This document shows positions 3,145-23,442 of a stretch of DNA of 32,000 nucleotides, in pieces. Made by a program: the position numbers and the translations under genes. The stretch's first letter is position 1. Every line of letters begins with the position of its first letter. Origin of the DNA: Prochlorococcus sp. MIT 0801 (GTDB lineage: Bacteria > Cyanobacteriota > Cyanobacteriia > PCC-6307 > Cyanobiaceae); NCBI RefSeq assembly GCF_000757865.1, contig NZ_CP007754.1:1350001-1382000 (forward strand), given 5' to 3'. The notes under the pieces are model-generated. The model saw nothing but the letters and a program-made list of their open reading frames with translations, did not search any database and was not told where the DNA came from.

Positions 3145-4221
3145 ATGACGATCGCTGTTGGAAGCGCAACAGAACGAGGTTGGTTTGACGCCCTCGATGA
3201 CTGGTTAAAGCGCGACCGATTCGTATTTGTTGGTTGGTCTGGACTACTACTCTTCCCTACGGCTTTCCTAGCTATTGGTGGATGGTTTACAGGTACAACC
3301 TTCGTTTCTTCCTGGTACACCCATGGTGTAGCCAGTTCTTACCTTGAGGGATGCAATTTCCTCACAGCCGCTGTTAGTACTCCTGGCGATGCCATGGGTC
3401 ACAGTCTTCTATTCCTTTGGGGACCAGAAGCTCAGGGCGATTTAACACGTTGGTTCCAACTTGGTGGCCTTTGGAATTTCGTTGCTCTTCACGGCGCGTT
3501 TAGTCTTATCGGCTTCATGCTTCGTCAATTCGAAATTGCCAGACTAGTTGGTATCCGTCCATATAACGCACTTGCTTTCTCAGCAGTTATTGCAGTATTT
3601 ACTGCTTGCTTCCTTATCTATCCATTAGGACAGCACAGTTGGTTCTTCGCTCCTTCTTTTGGAGTTGCAGCAATATTCCGTTTCATCCTCTTCATTCAAG
3701 GATTCCACAACATTACGCTTAACCCATTCCACATGATGGGAGTAGCAGGAATTCTTGGTGGTGCTCTTCTTTGTGCTATTCACGGTGCAACAGTTCAGAA
3801 CACTCTTTATGAAGATTCAAGTCAGTACTCTGAAGGTAAAGCTCAGAGTTCAACATTTAGAGGTTTCGATCCAGTTCAAGAAGAAGAAACTTACTCATTT
3901 ATTACAGCAAACCGTTTCTGGAGTCAGATTTTCGGAATTGCTTTCTCAAATAAGCGTTTCCTTCACTTCTTGATGCTCTTCGTACCAGTAACAGGTATGT
4001 GGGCTGCATCAATTGGAATCGTTGGATTAGCTCTAAACCTTCGTGCTTACGACTTTGTTAGCCAAGAAATCAGAGCTGCTGAAGATCCTGAATTCGAAAC
4101 TTTCTACACAAAAAATATCCTTCTTAATGAAGGTATGCGTGCATGGATGTCTTCTGTAGACCAACCACACGAAAACTTTGTATTCCCTGAGGAGGTACTC
4201 CCACGTGGAAACGCCCTTTAA
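3145..4221 (+). CDS. psbD: photosystem II D2 protein
   Basis: 358 aa beginning [33 protein letters not shown] and ending [12 protein letters not shown], an unmistakable D2 sequence. GC is elevated compared with neighbouring genes. Confidence 0.97.
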
Positions 4222-5587
4222 TAGTTTACTCAACGCTCCTAATCAAAGTCTTGAAGAGACTGGTTACGCCTGGTATGTAGGAAATGCAAGGCTAATCAAT
4301 CTTTCAGGAAGACTTTTAGGCGCTCACATTGCTCACGCAGGACTAATTGTGTTCTGGGCAGGCGCGATGATGCTTTTCGAAGTAAGTCACTTCACCATGG
4401 ATAAACCCATGTGGGAACAAGGCTTAATTTGTATGCCTCACGTAGCCATGTTTGGATACGGCATTGGTCCAGGTGGAGAAGTCACAGATGTATGGCCTTT
4501 CTTCATTGCTGGTGTTATTCACCTAGTTGCATCTGGAATCCTTGGCTTTGGTGGTGTTTTTCACTCCCTCGCAGGTCCAGAGAAACTTGAAGAAGATTTC
4601 CCATTCTTCTCAACTGACTGGAGAGATAAAAACCAAATGACCAACATTCTTGGTTTTCATTTGGTTGTTCTAGGCGTTGGTGCTCTTCTATGGTCCATTA
4701 ACTGGATGTACATAGGTGGTGCATACGACACTTGGGCTCCTGGTGGAGGAGAAGTTAGGTTGATCAACCCAACACTCGATCCAAGAATTATTTTTGGATA
4801 TTTACTATCAACCCCTTGGGGTGGTGGTGGTTGGATGGTTGGTGTTAACTCAATGGAAGATATTGTCGGAGGACATGTTTACCTGGGAGTGATTGAAATA
4901 ATTGGTGGTCTTTTCCATATCTTCACTCAGCCTTATGGATGGGCAAGGAGAGCCTTTATCTGGAACGGTGAAGGACTTCTAAGTTATGCGTTAGGTGGAA
5001 TCTGTGTCGCAAGTTTTGTTGCCTCATGTTTCATCTGGTTTAACAACACTGCCTATCCATCTGAGTTCTACGGTCCAACAAACGCTGAAGCTTCTCAGGC
5101 CCAAAGTTTTACATTCCTAGTTCGCGACCAACGAATTGGAGCAAATGTAGGTTCAACAATGGGTCCGACTGGTTTAGGTAAATACCTAATGCGTTCTCCT
5201 ACTGGTGAAATCATCTTTGGTGGAGAGACTATGCGTTTTTGGGATTTCCGAGGACCTTGGCTTGAGCCTCTTAGAGGACCAAATGGTCTCAGCCTTGAGA
5301 AGATTCAAAATGATATTCAGCCTTGGCAGGTTCGCCGTGCTGCTGAATACATGACACATGCTCCAAACGCTTCTATCAACTCAGTTGGTGGAATCATTAC
5401 TGAGCCTAATGCTGTTAACTTTGTTAACTTGCGTCAATGGCTAGCAGGTGCTCAATTCTTCCTTGGTTGGTTTACTTTTGTAGGTCATCTTTGGCATGCT
5501 GGTCGTGCTAGAGCCGCTGCAGCTGGATTTGAAAAAGGTATCAGTCGTTCACAAGAGCCTGCTCTTTCAATGCCTGATCTAGATTAG
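4205..5587 (+). CDS. psbC: photosystem II CP43 chlorophyll apoprotein
   Basis: CP43 sequence (ETPFNS...[40 protein letters not shown]). I place the start at GTG 4205, which lies 9 nt downstream of GAGGAGG (4189-4195) inside psbD. The ORF track's TTG at 4178 is the alternative. The CDS overlaps psbD by 17 nt. Confidence 0.93.
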
Positions 5588-12787: not shown

Positions 12788-12874
12788 CGGAGAGGGTGGG
12801 ATTCGAACCCACGGATAGTTTTAGCTATCAAACGATTTCGAGTCGTTCGCTTTCGACCACTCAGCCACCTCTCC
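12788..12874 (-). tRNA. tRNA-Ser (anticodon CGA), class II with a long variable arm; CCA is not encoded
   Basis: The reverse complement folds by hand into a cloverleaf. Acceptor stem GGAGAGG/CCTCTCC plus discriminator G. Anticodon stem AACGA/TCGTT with loop CTCGAAA. Variable arm GATAG..CTATC. T-arm GTGGG-TTCGAAT-CCCAC. Confidence 0.93.
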
Positions 12875-16681: not shown

Positions 16682-17554
16682 TTAATTTTCGGCACAAAGA
16701 GGGAAGCCAAGGTGCTCTCTTTCCTCTAGCCAAGCTTCAGCAACCTTACGAGCTAAAGATCGAATTCTTGCAATAATTTTAGTTCTCTCAGTAACAGAAA
16801 TAACCCCTCTTGCTTCTAATAAGTTAAATGTATGACTGCATTTTAAAACGTAATCAAGACAAGGTGCAGGTAATTTTTTAGCGATTAATTGATGAGCCTC
16901 TTCCTCATAAATTTCAAAAAGTTTCCTTAAATTTTCCGAGTTAGATTCTTCAAAATTATACTTACATTGACCTTTCTCAAAAGGAAGCCAGATATCACCA
17001 TATTTAGTCTTTTTATTCCAGGAAAGGTCCCAAATACTTTCAACATTTTGTAGATACATTGCCAATCTCTCCAAACCATAAGTGATCTCAATTGAAACAG
17101 GCTTGCAATCAAGACCTCCACATTGTTGAAAATAAGTAAATTGGGTAACTTCCATCCCATCAAGCCAAACTTCCCAACCCACTCCCCATGCGCCTAAGGT
17201 TGGAGATTCCCAATTATCTTCAACGAATCTGATATCATGGTTTTCAGGTGAAATCCCCAAGCTTTTGAGAGAAGATAAATAAATTTCTTGTATACCGTCT
17301 AAAGAAGGCTTGATAAGAACTTGATATTGAAAATAATGCTGTGCTCTATTTGGATTGTCTCCATACCTACCATCAGTCGGTCGCCGACAAGGTTCTGGGT
17401 AAGCTACAGCCCAAGGTTCAGGACCTATCGCTCTTAAAAAAGAATGAGGGCTCATCGTCCCTGCGCCCTTCTCTAAATCATATGGCTGAAGCAGCAAACA
17501 ACCTTTCTCACTCCAGAAATTATTGAGGGTAGAAATTATGTCCTGAAAGTACAC
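16682..17554 (-). CDS. glyQ: glycine--tRNA ligase alpha subunit
   Basis: 290 aa beginning [47 protein letters not shown], highly characteristic of GlyQ. GTG start, with GGGAGGA 7 nt upstream. Confidence 0.95.
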
Positions 17555-17590
17555 TATTCAGTCCTCCCAATGTTTTCATAGCTCAGATTT

Positions 17591-17699
17591 AGGAGAACAA
17601 TAGGAGAACAGGGATTCAAAACGAACTCAGGAGAACAGATGAGTGATGTGTCAGAAGAACGAGGAGAGAACATAATCATCAATTTGGATTTGTTCTCCT
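17591..17699. repeat. array of AGGAGAACA motifs: three exact direct copies, one copy with a 2-nt insertion and one inverted copy
   Basis: Exact AGGAGAACA at 17591-17599, 17602-17610 and 17629-17637. AGGAGAGAACA at 17662-17672. The inverted copy TGTTCTCCT at 17691-17699. All lie in the 241-bp spacer between the glyQ start and the protease stop. Confidence 0.85.
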
Positions 17700-17795
17700 A
17701 TTTCTTTCACTCAACTAATCCTATCTATTTGTGTAATGAATGACACGCAAATATCAATGAACAATCAAACAGATCACGACACTTGCAAACTAGAA

Positions 17796-19184
17796 TCAAA
17801 GAAAACCTTGATTATTTCCACAGTCATTAGGAAAATTAATTTCTCCTGGTTTATCTACATCTAACTCATTGAGAATATCGACAATAGAAACTGCAAAGTT
17901 TAAGTTCTGAGCATTTCCACCTCCAGGAATATTAAAGGTATTCACTCCAATTACTTCACCTTTTAAATTCACAAGTGGACCTCCACTATTTCCTGGACTG
18001 ATGGAAGCATCAGTTTGGATTAGGGTCACATAATTAGGAGCGATGTCTTCAAGCAACTCTCCGCTTGGATAACGAATTGCACTCACTATCCCTCTTGTAA
18101 CTGTTCCAGCAAGACCTAGAGGTGAACCTAGTGCAACAACACTCTGACCATGGTTTGGATATTTGGCATAACAAATTGGTAGAGGTTTTGTATTACTTGA
18201 ATTTTGAGTTTTGACTAATGCAAAATCTAATTTCTTATCTACATATACGACTTTTCCTTGTACCTTTGTACCATCATTAGCAATCACCTGAAACTGTTTA
18301 TCGCCGCTAGAGACCACATGTCTATTCGTCAGAATAAGTCCTTGGTTATCAATAAAGAAACCACTTCCAGAGCCCTCATCACTTCTAAGTTTAACAACAG
18401 AAGGTAAAGTATTTTTAGCTATTATTTCGACATCTAAATTAACTTTAGATACTAATTGAGGATTTATATTTATATTTATATTTAATTTATCCCAAGTCTG
18501 TATAACTTTTCCGAATAGGCTTTTCAAAGATTGTAGTGTCTCTTCGCCAATAGGAACAGTTTCATAGCCAGCATTAGTTTTCATTCTTAGACTTAAAGTA
18601 GTTGAATCTCCTGCATTTTTAACCTTATTAATAAATCCCTGAGGTAAAACAAATTCTCCATTATTACCATAAATTCTATAACTCTTTGACCCTAAATATA
18701 GCTCTATAAAGTTTGGGAAGTCATAAACACTTAAGGGCTCATATGAACATACCCAAAACCCACAACCACCTGAAGTATAGAAATAACCTTTAAGGTAATC
18801 TGTAGTCCATTTAGTAAAAAAAGCTTTGGTATATCCTGTACTGAAATCTGATTTCTTATCTCTATCATATATTGCATATTCATAAGAGCCATCAAGCTGA
18901 GAAATATTCTTAACTATCCTAGACCAAGGAAGTTTAACTTTCTTGGCCTTCCAATCGATATCTTTCTCTAATTCAATTACTTTTAAGCCTGTTTTTTCAT
19001 CTATTTTTTCTCTACTTTTATATTCATTTTCGCCTTTACAATATTCTTTATCTCTATGGACTATAGAGGAACAATTAACTTTAAATTTCTTTGTTTCTTC
19101 AGACTTAATTTCTTGAAAATTAAATAATGAAAACAAAGATAAAAGTATTATTTGTAAAATTATTCTTACTTTAAAGCTTCCCAT
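17796..19184 (-). CDS. secreted trypsin-like (S1C/DegP-type) serine protease with a large uncharacterised N-terminal domain
   Basis: The C-terminal roughly 190 aa carry the catalytic His (LTNRHVV), Asp (DFALVK) and Ser (GNSGGPLVN). The N-terminal roughly 250 aa match no family I recognise. Start is ATG 19184 (MGSFKVRIIL..., a signal peptide) or the upstream ATG at 19205 (MLISLQIMGSF...). Confidence 0.8.
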   Translation of the reverse strand: MGSFKVRIILQIILLSLFSLFNFQEIKSEETKKFKVNCSSIVHRDKEYCKGENEYKSREKIDEKTGLKVIELEKDIDWKAKKVKLPWSRIVKNISQLDGSYEYAIYDRDKKSDFSTGYTKAFFTKWTTDYLKGYFYTSGGCGFWVCSYEPLSVYDFPNFIELYLGSKSYRIYGNNGEFVLPQGFINKVKNAGDSTTLSLRMKTNAGYETVPIGEETLQSLKSLFGKVIQTWDKLNINININPQLVSKVNLDVEIIAKNTLPSVVKLRSDEGSGSGFFIDNQGLILTNRHVVSSGDKQFQVIANDGTKVQGKVVYVDKKLDFALVKTQNSSNTKPLPICYAKYPNHGQSVVALGSPLGLAGTVTRGIVSAIRYPSGELLEDIAPNYVTLIQTDASISPGNSGGPLVNLKGEVIGVNTFNIPGGGNAQNLNFAVSIVDILNELDVDKPGEINFPNDCGNNQGFL

Positions 19185-19339
19185 GATTTGCAAAGAAATC
19201 AACATACTAGAGGGTAACTAGCTAAAATATAAAATCTAGAAAATGAAACAAATACTCCTTAATAAAATTAATTCCATTGGCCAGAAGATACATAAATGAA
19301 CATCGAGAAACTTTGTTTTTCAACAGAGTTCTTCTATCA

Positions 19340-19630
19340 ATGGAACGAATGAGGTTGCGACCTCACAGCGCTAGGGAACCTCTTAGACTCTAACGAACAA
19401 GAAAAGAACATGAGCCAAGAATAGTTGCTATGACTGCGTTATAAGCTTCTGCGCTGAAAGTACATTAGTGTTGATATAACTGGAGTTAGAGGTAATCAGC
19501 TTAACTTGGCAGGGCTTACAACAAAGAAGTAACTCCAGTACCCCTCGTCTTAAATTAGCTCAACCGAGAAAATCAGTTAGATTCTAAATCAACTATCTAG
19601 CATTTAAAGCTGAGTATTTAGACGAGGAAA
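19340..19630. ncRNA. candidate structured noncoding element of unknown class; strand undetermined
   Basis: About 300 nt with no ORF above roughly 20 codons and clearly higher GC than its surroundings. Hairpins: TGAGGT-TGCG-ACCTCA (19350-19365); a long-range pair CAGCGC (19366-71) / GCGCTG (19451-56); a 10-bp stem ACTGGAGTTA (19479-88) / TAACTCCAGT (19530-39); and an 8-bp stem CCTCGTCT (19543-50) / AGACGAGG (19620-27) that extends with bulges. Confidence 0.3.
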
Positions 19631-19998
19631 AACCCAAAAAAAATAAGTATATACACTCATTAGGCAAGGAAAGGAAAAATACACTTACTAAACTAGAGAC
19701 ACAGAAGAAGGAGCAATTAGAGTATTTATCGAAATTATGATTAAAACAATAGATAATATTTGAAGTATTAATATATATTAAGGGGGTAGACCATGATAAC
19801 TATTAGTTGAGAGACATAAAACCCTATTTTCTACAAAAAAATATTTTTATACCTTGCGTTCGCTATAATTTATACTAAGTCAAACGCCTTCGAGCATAAC
19901 AAGACATTATAGAGTCAAGAGCGAAAAAGATAGTACACCAGTATCCATTGTTCCGATTCGTCACAAGACGTATATTAAATCCGTATTTAGCTAAACCT

Positions 19999-20619
19999 AT
20001 GGAACTATCGCCTACGGAGGTGGTTGACTTAGCAAATATTCCGCTCAACAGCGAAGTCACAAAGGGACTTGTACCTGCACAGGTGGAGTACGTCAAAGAA
20101 TCTGTCGTCGAAATCAACGAAGAGCTGAGCTGCGTTGGGCAATCGCTAAGAGCCGTGGCGGCCAACCTCTCCGACATAAAGAGCAACATCAAGCCTGGCA
20201 ATTGGAGAGCCTTCTTGAAATCCGGAGCGATTAACTGCTCAGAAAGGTTTGCAATTGACCTTGTAAGTGCATACACGAACTGGCTAGGTGGTTCCGATAT
20301 AGACGACAACATGCTTGCATCGCTAACACCTAGATCGCTAGCGTTAATGGGAAGCAAAGGAGTGACCGATAAGGAGCGACAAAAGGTATTCGAAGCCGTA
20401 GGGAACGGCGAAAGAATGACAGAAGCGGCCGTAAGAAGCTTAGTAAAAGGAAGCAAGAAAAAAGCTAGTAAATCATCCCAGAAAAGTGAAAGCGAAAAGA
20501 TCAAATCACTAAAAGAAAAGATCGAGACTTACAAAAAAGTCATCAACAACCTTCAAGATGAAAACAAGAAATTAAGTAAATTACTATCAAATAGAGAGAA
20601 AATTGAGTCACTTGTCTAG
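19999..20619 (+). CDS. KfrA-/DUF3102-like protein: a GC-rich N-terminal globular (putative DNA-binding) domain plus an AT-rich C-terminal Lys/Glu coiled coil
   Basis: The segment GNWRAFLKSGAINCSERFAIDLVSAY resembles the conserved core of DUF3102 as I remember it (G.W..WL.....S.RTA.R.M..A). The C-terminus KSLKEKIETYKKVINNLQDENKKLSKLL is coiled-coil-like. I place the start at ATG 19999; the ORF track's in-frame TTG is at 19948. Confidence 0.6.
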   Translation: MELSPTEVVDLANIPLNSEVTKGLVPAQVEYVKESVVEINEELSCVGQSLRAVAANLSDIKSNIKPGNWRAFLKSGAINCSERFAIDLVSAYTNWLGGSDIDDNMLASLTPRSLALMGSKGVTDKERQKVFEAVGNGERMTEAAVRSLVKGSKKKASKSSQKSESEKIKSLKEKIETYKKVINNLQDENKKLSKLLSNREKIESLV

Positions 20620-20659
20620 TGATTGCCACCAAAAGCATTTCCTACTACTATTATTAAAA

Positions 20660-20833
20660 ATGAAAAGCATCAAATTCAGTACTAGAATCTATAAACAAAT
20701 AAAATCAAAAAATCAAGAAATCAACAACTTAGAGGAAGGAATAACGAAGGTACTTCAAGAAAAATACAAGCCTAAAGTTCTTTGCAACATAGAGACTTTG
20801 AGCGAAAAGAAAGTTCAAAGGGGGGTAGCTTAA
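20660..20833 (+). CDS. hypothetical small basic protein (57 aa)
   Basis: Internal ATG of ORF 20603..20833, lying 40 nt after the previous stop. Part of a tightly spaced same-strand gene string. Confidence 0.4.
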   Translation: MKSIKFSTRIYKQIKSKNQEINNLEEGITKVLQEKYKPKVLCNIETLSEKKVQRGVA

Positions 20834-20837
20834 GATT

Positions 20838-20999
20838 ATGAATAAGAATTTAAAATCAAGAAATGGATTCATCCATTTATACAACCCCCATGAAGAAGGA
20901 TTAGGATCTTACGATGTACACTATATAAACGCCTATAAAAAAAATGAAAGTTTAAAAAATAATCTAAACAAAAGAAATAAGGAGAGGTATGCAGCATGA
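20838..20999 (+). CDS. hypothetical small protein (53 aa), below the ORF-track length cut-off
   Basis: Hand translation gives MNKNLKSRNGFIHLYNPHEEGLGSYDVHYINAYKKNESLKNNLNKRNKERYAA. It starts 4 nt after the previous stop, and its TGA overlaps the next ATG as ATGA (20996-20999). Confidence 0.4.
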   Translation: MNKNLKSRNGFIHLYNPHEEGLGSYDVHYINAYKKNESLKNNLNKRNKERYAA

Positions 21000-21316
21000 T
21001 TCCATTTATCAGAAGCCTTTCGGAGCTAATGGCGATTACAGAGTCAAGAGACAGCCAAAAGCATCTCTCTCAATACGATGAAAGCTATACATCTACAATA
21101 GATAGTGGACAAAGAAAAAGATATATAAAGTCACTAAGCAAGCAAGAAGTCAGCCTGCCTGATTTACCTAAAACAATAAGGCATAAATGGATGCAAAATA
21201 AAGCATCTATATCAAGATTCATTGATGATTTAGATTACAACAATCAAATACAATCTTCCTTTGATCTGACCTTAATAGAAAGACAAAACAAGAGAACTCA
21301 ACAGGATGTCGCCTAA
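20996..21316 (+). CDS. hypothetical protein (106 aa)
   Basis: ATG preceded by GGAGAGG (20981-20987). ATGA overlap with the upstream sORF. No recognisable domain. Confidence 0.5.
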   Translation: MIPFIRSLSELMAITESRDSQKHLSQYDESYTSTIDSGQRKRYIKSLSKQEVSLPDLPKTIRHKWMQNKASISRFIDDLDYNNQIQSSFDLTLIERQNKRTQQDVA

Positions 21317-21318
21317 TT

Positions 21319-21660
21319 ATGAAAAAAACTAAAATAAATCAGGTGCTAGAGTATTTATCTCCGACATTGATTCTCTCATATTTTTTTGTACATAAAATTT
21401 TTCTAGTTCTAATTAGCATTACATTGTCAATATATTTAATAAATATTACTATGATTAATAATCTCAAAAGATCTCTAACTAAAAATTTGGATACAATAAA
21501 AGAACCTAAGGAGTTAAATAAAAGCGATAAGGAAATAAATTCCAATATTGTTAGTATCAAATCAAGTAAAGATGATACCAAACTTACATTAGTTGAAGAA
21601 ATAGAAGAATTCGGATTTATACCATCAATAGATAAGGAAAATAATACTAATGCAGCATAA
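21319..21660 (+). CDS. hypothetical membrane-anchored protein (113 aa)
   Basis: Starts 2 nt after the previous stop. The N-terminal hydrophobic stretch LILSYFFVHKIFLVLISITLSIYLI is followed by a polar, acidic tail. Confidence 0.5.
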   Translation: MKKTKINQVLEYLSPTLILSYFFVHKIFLVLISITLSIYLINITMINNLKRSLTKNLDTIKEPKELNKSDKEINSNIVSIKSSKDDTKLTLVEEIEEFGFIPSIDKENNTNAA

Positions 21661-21766: not shown

Positions 21767-21961
21767 ATGCAAGAAGATCCAAATAGCATAGAAGATTTAT
21801 TAGTTAAAGGTTTATCTCATATTTTAAAAAGAACAGTAGAGGTAAGCCCAAGGGATCAATTAGCAATTGCCCAAGAGTATAAAGAATGGATAAATTGCAT
21901 ATCTGCTAGTGATTTCTCAAAGCAAGAGATTCTAGTAATAGATAAGTTTACATTTAGCTAG
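21767..21961 (+). CDS. hypothetical small protein (64 aa), paralogue of 25039..25239
   Basis: Shares PNSIEDL...L.R..E....D......QEYKEWI......SKQEIL with the 66-aa ORF at 25039. Conservation between the two copies supports coding. Confidence 0.55.
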   Translation: MQEDPNSIEDLLVKGLSHILKRTVEVSPRDQLAIAQEYKEWINCISASDFSKQEILVIDKFTFS

Positions 21962-22213
21962 AAATTTTAGTTTAGCTAAAAAATCTATAAAGAAATATAT
22001 TTTTGATTAATAAATCAAGTATAATAGATTAAAACTTAAAATATCTAAGAATTTAAAAAAAGTTTTCTCTATATTTATAAATTTAGCTGAAAAAATAGTA
22101 AAAATTTATATTTATTATTTATTTTTTGTTACTATTTTTTAAAGTTAAAATAATCTTTTTTTTATAATTGAATCAAATAGCCAAGTTCACATTAAGCAAT
22201 AAAGGAAAGAAAA

Positions 22214-22241
22214 TTGACATTATTCAGTACTAATGTACTAT
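22214..22241 (+). promoter_or_regulatory. sigma70-type promoter (-35 TTGACA, 16-nt spacer, -10 TACTAT) overlapped by a LexA/SOS box
   Basis: TTGACA at 22214-22219 and TACTAT at 22236-22241. AGTACTAATGTACT (22226-22239) is a perfect palindrome AGTAC-N4-GTACT and fits the cyanobacterial LexA consensus RGTACNNNDGTWCB at every position. Confidence 0.6.
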
Positions 22242-22318
22242 AAAGAAACGTTCCTATCGTATCGAAGAATCTCGATTTTCTTTCAGCCACTCTTACAAAA
22301 TCATTTAATTTACTAAGC

Positions 22319-22504
22319 ATGAGTAATGAAACAGCTAACAGAGGTAGGGAAATCTTCGCGTATTTAATCAACCAATCAACTGGAGTATCTAATGGAATCT
22401 TCAAGCACTTCAAGCTGGGTATCGACAAAGAGCCTAAAGCTTTCAAGCGGACTAGAAATTGGAAGAGAAGCGCTCATAACAAGCTCCACAAGAGAGTTAG
22501 TTGA
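22319..22504 (+). CDS. small basic protein (61 aa) downstream of the LexA-box promoter; may be the 5' part of a frameshifted longer gene extending to 22586
   Basis: The ATG lies about 75 nt downstream of the putative -10. A second frame (22392..22586) overlaps it and stays open to 22586. GC is moderately elevated. No family recognised. Confidence 0.4.
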   Translation: MSNETANRGREIFAYLINQSTGVSNGIFKHFKLGIDKEPKAFKRTRNWKRSAHNKLHKRVS

Positions 22505-22675
22505 ATTTTACTGGACAAATCGAAAGCGATTTTCTGGAGGTTACTTAGGCTTCCCTTCAAAAATAAATAGAGACCAGGAGAAATAAAAACTGAACTTAAA
22601 ATTTCCTTTTTTTGATCTAAGTAAATAATTTATTATTAAGGCTATTACAAAAAACAAATTAATAAATAACGATTG

Positions 22676-22935: not shown

Positions 22936-23442
22936 TTACGAAGGCTTATCTTCCTCAATAGGCTTATCTTCCTCAATAGGCTTATCTTCCTCAATAGGCT
23001 TATCTTCCTCAGGCTTATCTTCCTCAACAGGCTTATCTTCCTCAACAGGCTTATCTTCCTCAACAGGCTTATCTTCCTCAACAGGCTTATCTTCCTCAAC
23101 AGGCTTATCTTCCTCAACAGGCTTATCTTCCTCAACAGGCTTATCTTCCTCAATAGGCTTATCTTCCTCAATAGGCTTATCTTCCTCAACAGGCTTATCT
23201 TCCTCTATCGGTTTAATTTCAACTATGTTGTCAATTGACGAAAACGAAGAAGACTCGCTGCTTGTAAAAATCTGAGAAACCTCCTTAACCGAATCAGACT
23301 CGGAGTCCTTAAGTAAAAATTTCAAAACATATCCAAGAGAGACAAACAAAGCTATTGGGAGGACAAGTCCTAAAAGCAATTTATAGAGGATTATTCCTAT
23401 ACCAAGGACACCAATAGAAATAAGAATGTTCTTCTTGTTCAT
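22936..23442 (-). CDS. membrane-anchored protein with a C-terminal (EEDKP[V/I]) tandem-repeat tail
   Basis: 168 aa. N-terminal TM region ILISIGVLGIGIILYKLLLGLVLPIALFVSLGYVL, a Ser-rich linker, then about 15 EEDKPV/I units that run to the stop codon. Confidence 0.65.
   Translation of the reverse strand: MNKKNILISIGVLGIGIILYKLLLGLVLPIALFVSLGYVLKFLLKDSESDSVKEVSQIFTSSESSSFSSIDNIVEIKPIEEDKPVEEDKPIEEDKPIEEDKPVEEDKPVEEDKPVEEDKPVEEDKPVEEDKPVEEDKPVEEDKPEEDKPIEEDKPIEEDKPIEEDKPS
22942..23208. repeat. 18-bp tandem repeat, about 15 units (one 15-bp unit), in frame inside CDS 22936..23442
   Basis: The unit is aggcttatcttcctcaa[c/t]. Seven consecutive identical caac-type units span 23011-23136. The short unit is at 22996-23010. 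Confidence 0.95.

Follow-up and report, generated by a model that had tools for sequence, protein, structure and literature searches.

Within a window of 32,000 nucleotides (nt) from Prochlorococcus sp. MIT 0801 (contig NZ_CP007754.1, positions 1,350,001 to 1,382,000 of the forward strand), a block of six genes, here called g1 to g6, is held between glyQ and a gene for a DUF6737 protein (DUF, domain of unknown function). We propose, with a probability of about 0.5, that this block is a fixed remnant of a Prochlorococcus-specific integrative element of a large tyrosine-recombinase type, headed by g1, a repressor that would regulate its own operon. The proposal draws on the conservation of the block throughout a clade, on the linkage of g1 relatives to tyrosine recombinases in related loci, on the remote relation of g1 to DUF3102 proteins, and on a nearly invariant dyad and promoter-like block ahead of g1. 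The window is of low guanine-plus-cytosine (GC) content, and its nearest relatives are the chromosomes of strains MIT0916 and MIT1012, both of the LLI (low-light) clade of Prochlorococcus (PMC12675747).

Between window positions 19999 and 21660, five open reading frames (ORFs) were confirmed on the plus strand, every one of them starting with ATG; the five-gene layout, lengths and spacings described in an earlier note, made from the sequence alone, were exactly borne out. The lead gene g1 (19999-20619, 206 amino acids, aa) is followed after 40 nt by g2 (20660-20833, 57 aa) and, 4 nt further, by g3 (20838-20999, 53 aa); g4 (20996-21316, 106 aa) overlaps g3 by 4 nt, its start and the g3 stop sharing an ATGA, and g5 (21319-21660, 113 aa) begins 2 nt after g4. 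A sixth conserved gene, g6 (21767-21961, plus strand, 64 aa), lies beyond the coordinates of the earlier note, 106 nt from g5 and on the same strand, and no terminator-like site was found between g5 and g6; g6 is part of the conserved block, and the unit is probably larger than first described. GC content at third codon positions falls steadily along the operon, from 0.48 in g1 through 0.40 in g2, 0.31 in g3 and 0.28 in g4 to 0.17 in g5; each of the 24 g1 orthologs has the same 0.48 despite saturated synonymous sites, with adjacent genes at 0.17-0.34.

In a scan that used one genome per species, close relatives of g1 (80-97% identical) were found at 23 further species-level Prochlorococcus loci, and a 24th locus, L025, from a single-cell genome, carried a relative at 52% identity. 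Genes g3, g4, g5 and g6 and the DUF6737 gene followed g1 in the same order in the 23 species-level genomes, among them those of MIT0916 and MIT1012; for g6, synteny was noted in 22 genomes. A metagenome scan with group C, which yielded mostly LLI-type loci and was used for synteny, added about 70 LLI-type marine contigs, and those of sufficient length showed the same order, with glyQ upstream; in LLI-type loci the block was always flanked by glyQ and the DUF6737 gene. The co-occurrence that the earlier note had raised for checking is thus present, the gene set being kept in 23 further species-level genomes and in LLI-type contigs, and its term ORFan does not apply, as LLI Prochlorococcus strains share all five genes in conserved synteny. 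Ortholog lengths varied little: 204-207 aa for g1, 51-55 aa for g3 (24/24), always 106 aa for g4 and mostly 113 aa for g5. An ORF of 53-60 aa occupied the g2 position in 24/24 loci and kept the core G(I/V)TxxLLEKYKP; tblastn with g2 was weak or blank in some genomes, and the gene caller used for L001 missed it. Because near-equal-length orthologs occur in 23 other species-level genomes, the ORFs of g1 to g5 are more than chance. Pairwise ratios of nonsynonymous to synonymous substitution (dN/dS) were 0.04 for g1, 0.45 for g2, 0.21 for g3, 0.26 for g4, 0.40 for g5 and 0.10 for g6, with g1 among the most constrained genes, g6 the most conserved small protein, and g2 and g5 evolving fast. Since all of these ratios are below 1, g1 to g6 look like real protein-coding genes. 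The block is vertically inherited throughout LLI Prochlorococcus and is under purifying selection.

A link to recombinases emerged from related loci. In L025, L026, L030, L034 and L036, the g1 relative lies directly downstream of a tyrosine recombinase, and these recombinases, of 487-522 aa, are homologous to one another. The 487-aa ORF of L025 directly precedes the 52%-identical g1 relative, and a 522-aa ORF directly precedes the relative in L026, which is the locus of the LLIV strain MIT1342; the two products are 28% identical over 480 residues (E = 2e-52), and the 522-aa protein matched Phage_integrase (PF00589) with E = 8.3e-6 and 26.1 bits, against a cutoff of 27.1. The same order, recombinase and then g1, was present in L030, L034 and L036, which are metagenome contigs carrying a third g1 subfamily. 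In two LLI-type loci, L050 and L096, the spacer between g6 and the DUF6737 gene is replaced by a gene for a 444-aa recombinase homolog, placed on the minus strand and convergent to g6; the L096 protein matched PF00589 with E = 4.4e-4, the L050 and L096 proteins are 45% identical to each other, and L057 has a decayed recombinase copy at the same position. Ancestry in a mobile element, as the earlier note had suspected, is made likely by this link. Prochlorococcus-specific tyrosine recombinases, both tRNA-associated and non-tRNA-associated, were described by Hackl et al., together with several accessory profiles assigned by context, one of them a coiled coil, onto which g1 could not be mapped (10.1101/2020.12.28.424599). 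Next after the pair of recombinase and g1 relative in MIT1342 comes a 365-aa protein (L026, 10987-12084) whose GGxGxD repeats are of the RTX-like, calcium-binding kind; it is possibly a cargo of that element.

Homologs of g1 numbered 599 in a collection of 5.8 billion proteins, and the best 120 of the 599 were 88-96% identical to it; a HMMER search of 1.84 billion cluster representatives resolved the family into 113 clusters at 50% identity, most of them of 190-300 aa. In the collections searched here, members occur in Prochlorococcus genomes and marine metagenome contigs alone; they include the protein of MIT1342 and another that is labelled "predicted transcriptional regulator" by IMG. Nearly all returns of a homolog search with the N-domain profile were close LLI relatives, and a search with P0131 returned 6 proteins. 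All members share an N-domain of about 140 residues, followed by a variable linker and then by a heptad region at the C-terminus in which LxxENxxL is conserved. Across a 61-member alignment, W69 and R112 of the N-domain are invariant and G47, S75, D87-L88 and W95 nearly so; N68 and G76 are invariant in a closer alignment of 29 members only. The g1-family tail matched bZIP, DivIC and ZapB models. A conserved asparagine within a leucine heptad is a classic sign of a parallel dimeric zipper of the GCN4 type, and we propose that g1 is a dimeric DNA-binding autoregulator.

The globular N-domain and coiled-coil tail that the earlier note had assigned to g1 agree with an AlphaFold2 model built from the 29-sequence alignment (predicted local distance difference test, pLDDT, 84), in which residues 18-149 form an eight-helix bundle and residues 164-205 a single long helix. 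The same note had called the protein DUF3102-like, and this stands as remote homology, not as membership: the consensus of the g1 family scored 26.1 bits against PF11300 (DUF3102; gathering cutoff 24.4 bits) over profile positions 28-129 of 129, sub-threshold matches to PF11300 occurred in 7 of 61 family members (best E = 3.3e-4), and the two best hits when Foldseek compared the g1 model with viral predicted structures (BFVD) were DUF3102 proteins (E = 2.4e-3 and 1.9e-2, probability 1.0), but g1 itself had no match to PF11300 at E <= 1. We therefore call the g1 N-domain a remote DUF3102 relative, because the actual protein misses the Pfam threshold. Foldseek of the g1 model against the PDB gave nothing under E = 1, and the full-family profile matched only coiled coils among PDB sequences; SAM-domain matches of the N-domain profile against the PDB were marginal (E = 0.0075) and were not relied on.

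The sequence ahead of g1 is conserved in a single place. Over the 230 nt 5' of g1, sixteen genomes could not be aligned apart from a nearly invariant promoter/operator-like block of 46 nt (19931-19976, plus strand), in contrast to the synonymous sites of g1, which are saturated (proportion of synonymous differences, pS, 0.73). An 18-mer from the block occurred in exactly one copy per locus in 69 loci, always about 50 nt ahead of the g1 start. The block contains the motif TAGTACACCAGTATCC and, at 19949-19965, a 17-base-pair (bp) dyad, TGTTCCGATTCGTCACA, of the form TGTnnCGAnTCGnnACA, which occurs once in the window, where 0.02 chance matches were expected. The dyad overlaps a promoter-like site composed of a -35-like TTGTTC (19948-19953), a 17-nt spacer and a -10-like TATATT (19971-19976). 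Folded as RNA, the block showed no unusual structure (z-score 0.06), and for this reason the idea of a leader RNA was dropped; Rfam, run over the whole window and permissively over 19100-20100, gave no RNA family close to the cluster.

Perfect palindromes of their own lie about 50-115 nt upstream of the g1 relatives in other subfamilies: TGACGAGCTCGTCA at 50 nt in L025, TGACGnnnnCGTCA at 49 nt in L028, L041 and L068, where the same TAGTACAC..GTATCC motif precedes it, CTAGCGAGCTCGCTAG in L026 and a 23-bp palindrome in L034. By a rough estimate, fewer than 1 in 100 such 140-nt regions should contain a perfect palindrome of 14-16 bp. That the palindromes change along with the protein subfamily is what would be expected of a dimeric repressor co-evolving with its operator.

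The products of g2 to g5, which the earlier note had not recognised, are likewise without a family match in Pfam, PHROG, NCBIfam and PADLOC, and none of the g1 to g6 products scored above threshold in these four. The basic g3 protein carries the motif HLYNPxxEGLGSYDVHYINAYKK and g2, in the window, the core GITxxLLEKYKP; g4 carries MIPFIRSLSEL, DSGQRKRYIKSL and DLDYNNQIQSSYDLTLLERQ; g5 has a hydrophobic N-terminal anchor (about residues 14-45), a variable linker and LTLVEEIEE(F/L)GFIPS; and the acidic g6 protein carries DQLAIAQEYKEWINCIS. The window copies of g2 and g4 end in Val-Ala and those of g3 and g5 in Ala-Ala. A C-terminal alanine was present in 15/18 orthologs of g2, 24/24 of g3 (as AA or VA), 24/24 of g4 and 16/22 of g5; among the other ORFs of the window it was found in 1 of 30. 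Several small ORFs beside g1 relatives in other loci likewise end in AA or VA. In the ssrA tag, recognition by ClpXP depends above all on a C-terminal Ala-Ala, and the ends of g2 to g5 may be ssrA-like degrons. The g4 motif QRKRY(I/L)K(S/T)L recurs near the C-terminus of a membrane protein encoded after the g1 relative in L028, L041 and L068, a recurrence that hints at a conserved partner. The single-sequence AlphaFold2 model of g4 was uninformative (pLDDT 47) and for that reason was not used for a structure search; a likeness of the g4 N-terminus to a 59-aa ORF of L025 was not significant and was rejected.

We reasoned that these features could fit together as follows. The recombinase of the element would have been lost in the source genome, and the remaining genes kept by selection, g1 among them as the regulator of the element. 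Its DUF3102-related helical N-domain would bind DNA, and its C-terminal leucine zipper would make it a dimer; the dimer is predicted to bind the dyad TGTTCCGATTCGTCACA, which overlaps the putative g1 promoter at its -35 box and spacer, and in this way g1 would repress its own operon, from g1 to g5 and probably g6. The g2 to g5 products would be co-transcribed, translationally coupled small proteins, kept short-lived by Ala-Ala and Val-Ala ends acting as ssrA-like degrons, and g5 would put part of the system at the membrane.

Upstream of the block, glyQ (16682-17554, minus strand) is parted from its native upstream region by an insertion of about 1.9 kb (17557-19453), which contains a trypsin-like protease gene (17796-19205, minus strand, 469 aa); in most other genomes, glyQ directly abuts sequence that starts at window position 19454. 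The insertion is flanked by an 11-nt direct repeat, CTGAAAGTACA (17543-17553 and 19454-19464), which covers the glyQ start codon, and it was present in the window, in L001 (an identical contig) and in L097 only. Other insertions occupy the same spot between glyQ and g1 elsewhere, such as a DUF1651 gene in L040 and L102. As the insertions in this spacer differ between genomes, the spacer is a hot spot just upstream of g1, with g1 to g6 itself fixed. The chromosomal islet of the earlier note therefore has to be relocated: the variable part is the protease insertion, not the cluster. The only tRNA gene of the window, a tRNA-Ser (12788-12874), lies 7 kb from the block. Downstream, the spacer between g6 and the DUF6737 gene contains, within 22212-22590, a conserved strong promoter-like TTGACA-N16-TACTAT (22214-22241, plus strand), followed by a conserved block that holds two small ORFs overlapping each other (22319-22504 and 22392-22586) and has unusually low synonymous divergence (pS 0.34); this block may encode a small protein or a non-coding RNA. 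Further features of the window include an IsrR match in Rfam (151 bits; 4619-4802, minus strand), antisense within a pcb/isiA-like antenna gene (4178-5587), and a 168-aa predicted membrane-anchored protein (22936-23442, minus strand) with about 15 tandem EEDKP(V/I) repeats, in which another frame of the same strand holds a shadow ORF of KISLLR repeats.

Several observations weigh against descent from an integrative element headed by a repressor. No recombinase trace was detectable in the window, and no attachment-site (att)-like direct repeats bounding the block were found; in a search for inverted or direct repeats, the only candidates were of 14-16 nt, and they were rejected as element ends, the right one (22224-22241) overlapping the -10 of the promoter-like site beyond g6. 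The recombinase of L050 and L096 could be a later insertion and not ancestral. In Pfam, PHROG and NCBIfam, g1 itself gave nothing above threshold, only coiled-coil noise; the DUF3102 relation is based on an artificial consensus and on weak Foldseek E-values, the putative promoter upstream of g1 is a consensus match only, and the proposed degrons are read from terminal residues. The left half of the LLI dyad, furthermore, is unlike the palindromes of the closest subfamily. Some of these points would suit ordinary clade-specific chromosomal genes with no mobile past, with g1 serving the host as a transcription factor and the recombinases inserted independently at a hot spot: the position of the block does not vary in any LLI genome and selection on it is strongly purifying, the spacer between glyQ and g1 does take up insertions (the protease here, DUF1651 or other genes elsewhere), and att repeats and recombinase remnants are missing from the window. 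Chance insertion, however, is hard to credit for a recombinase adjacent to g1 in five independent loci and three other g1 subfamilies. Moreover, the recombinases of L050 and L096, which share their location, have just 45% identity, a divergence about equal to that of g4 and g5 in these loci, which suggests long co-residence with the block; we consider a purely host origin unlikely.

Two further explanations keep the mobile past and change the role of the genes. The earlier note had favoured a KfrA-type protein of plasmids or phages, acting in partition or replication control, with the cluster as a partition or replication remnant. The architecture is the same, a coiled-coil tail coming after a helical N-domain; autoregulation in the manner of KfrA would agree with the dyad that lies over the promoter of g1; DUF3102 occurs in phages; and supplementary table 4 of the tycheposon study (10.1101/2020.12.28.424599) includes "replication factor" profiles for which context was the only basis of assignment, a coiled coil among them. 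Yet KfrA_N (PF11740) was matched neither by g1 nor by 61 relatives nor by the consensus sequences, and the coiled coil of g1 spans about 40 residues, compared with several hundred in KfrA. The affinity to plasmids and phages was not borne out either, since relatives of g1 were absent by tblastn from 72,556 PLSDB plasmids and 50,697 GenBank phage records and were absent from IMG/VR (queries g1, P0296, P0129 and P0131). Genes for ParA/ParB, Rep, primase and helicase are missing both from the block and from the surroundings of the recombinase-linked relatives, and the locus is chromosomal and fixed; a partition or replication role is accordingly improbable, the least likely of the explanations weighed here. 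A small toxin-antitoxin, abortive-infection or exclusion module, with g5 or a small basic protein as effector, labile Ala-tailed proteins as antidotes and g1 as regulator, would account for the tightly coupled small genes, the membrane-anchored product and the degron-like C-termini, and would agree with an origin in a mobile element and with the fast evolution of g2 and g5 (dN/dS 0.40-0.45). Against it, the PADLOC anti-phage models gave only weak matches over partial regions (best E = 5e-4, 17 bits), no toxin or antitoxin domain was found in Pfam and PHROG scans of the block products, and the fixation of this block in its clade is unlike defence islands, which tend to vary; such a module seems doubtful to us. 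The integrative-element reading is the one that we prefer.

Most classical mobile elements are believed to be missing from Prochlorococcus, where gene flow has been linked with tycheposons and their unusual recombinases. If the block is what we propose, the g1 family travels with a second, non-tRNA recombinase set and could serve as a marker gene for such elements; as a promoter-binding dimer, g1 would give the first functional lead for DUF3102; and the locus would offer a concrete case of an element remnant under strong selection throughout an ecotype. It would be a decayed integrative element with its regulator, fresh in some details but no novel kind of system. Both the invariant site resembling an operator and the small proteins with Ala tails lend themselves to direct tests. 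A bolder extension, which we regard as speculative and rather unlikely, is that g1 is the signature regulator of undescribed non-tRNA integrative elements of Prochlorococcus, each combining a large divergent recombinase with a DUF3102-type zipper protein and each subfamily having a co-evolving palindromic operator; the LLI copy would then have been domesticated as a proteolysis-gated switch, made of a repressor and short-lived Ala-tailed proteins, one of them membrane-anchored, that might give immunity against related incoming elements.

Among known systems, DUF3102 (PF11300) is a helical domain that occurs in proteins of phages and plasmids and is uncharacterised, and no function was reported in the literature that mentions it. 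The likeness lies in the g1-family consensus, which exceeds the cutoff, and in the viral DUF3102 proteins that are the top structural matches of the g1 model; the difference is that g1 remains below every threshold and that its family is not in the phage and plasmid collections searched. KfrA of IncP plasmids resembles g1 in its helical, putatively DNA-binding N-domain, its coiled-coil tail and the dyad over its own promoter, which suggests autoregulation, but its coiled coil is far longer, and g1 has no KfrA_N match, a chromosomal locus and no partition genes nearby. Tycheposons (10.1101/2020.12.28.424599) share with the g1 loci divergent, lineage-specific recombinases that PF00589 barely recognises, and the placement of the recombinase at one end of the block, facing inward (as in L050 and L096), beside a small module of uncharacterised genes. 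They integrate at one of seven tRNA genes and are flanked by partial tRNA repeats, whereas the g1-g6 block is bounded by glyQ and the DUF6737 gene, has no primase, helicase or excisionase hallmark genes, has lost its recombinase in the source genome and is fixed, not mobile. Finally, the CI/ImmR-type repressors of cryptic prophages and integrative elements differ from g1, which has no recognisable HTH_3 or Cro/C1 domain and whose DNA binding is putative; like g1, they have an integrase neighbour and a palindromic operator over their own promoter, and they are kept under selection after the element around them has decayed.

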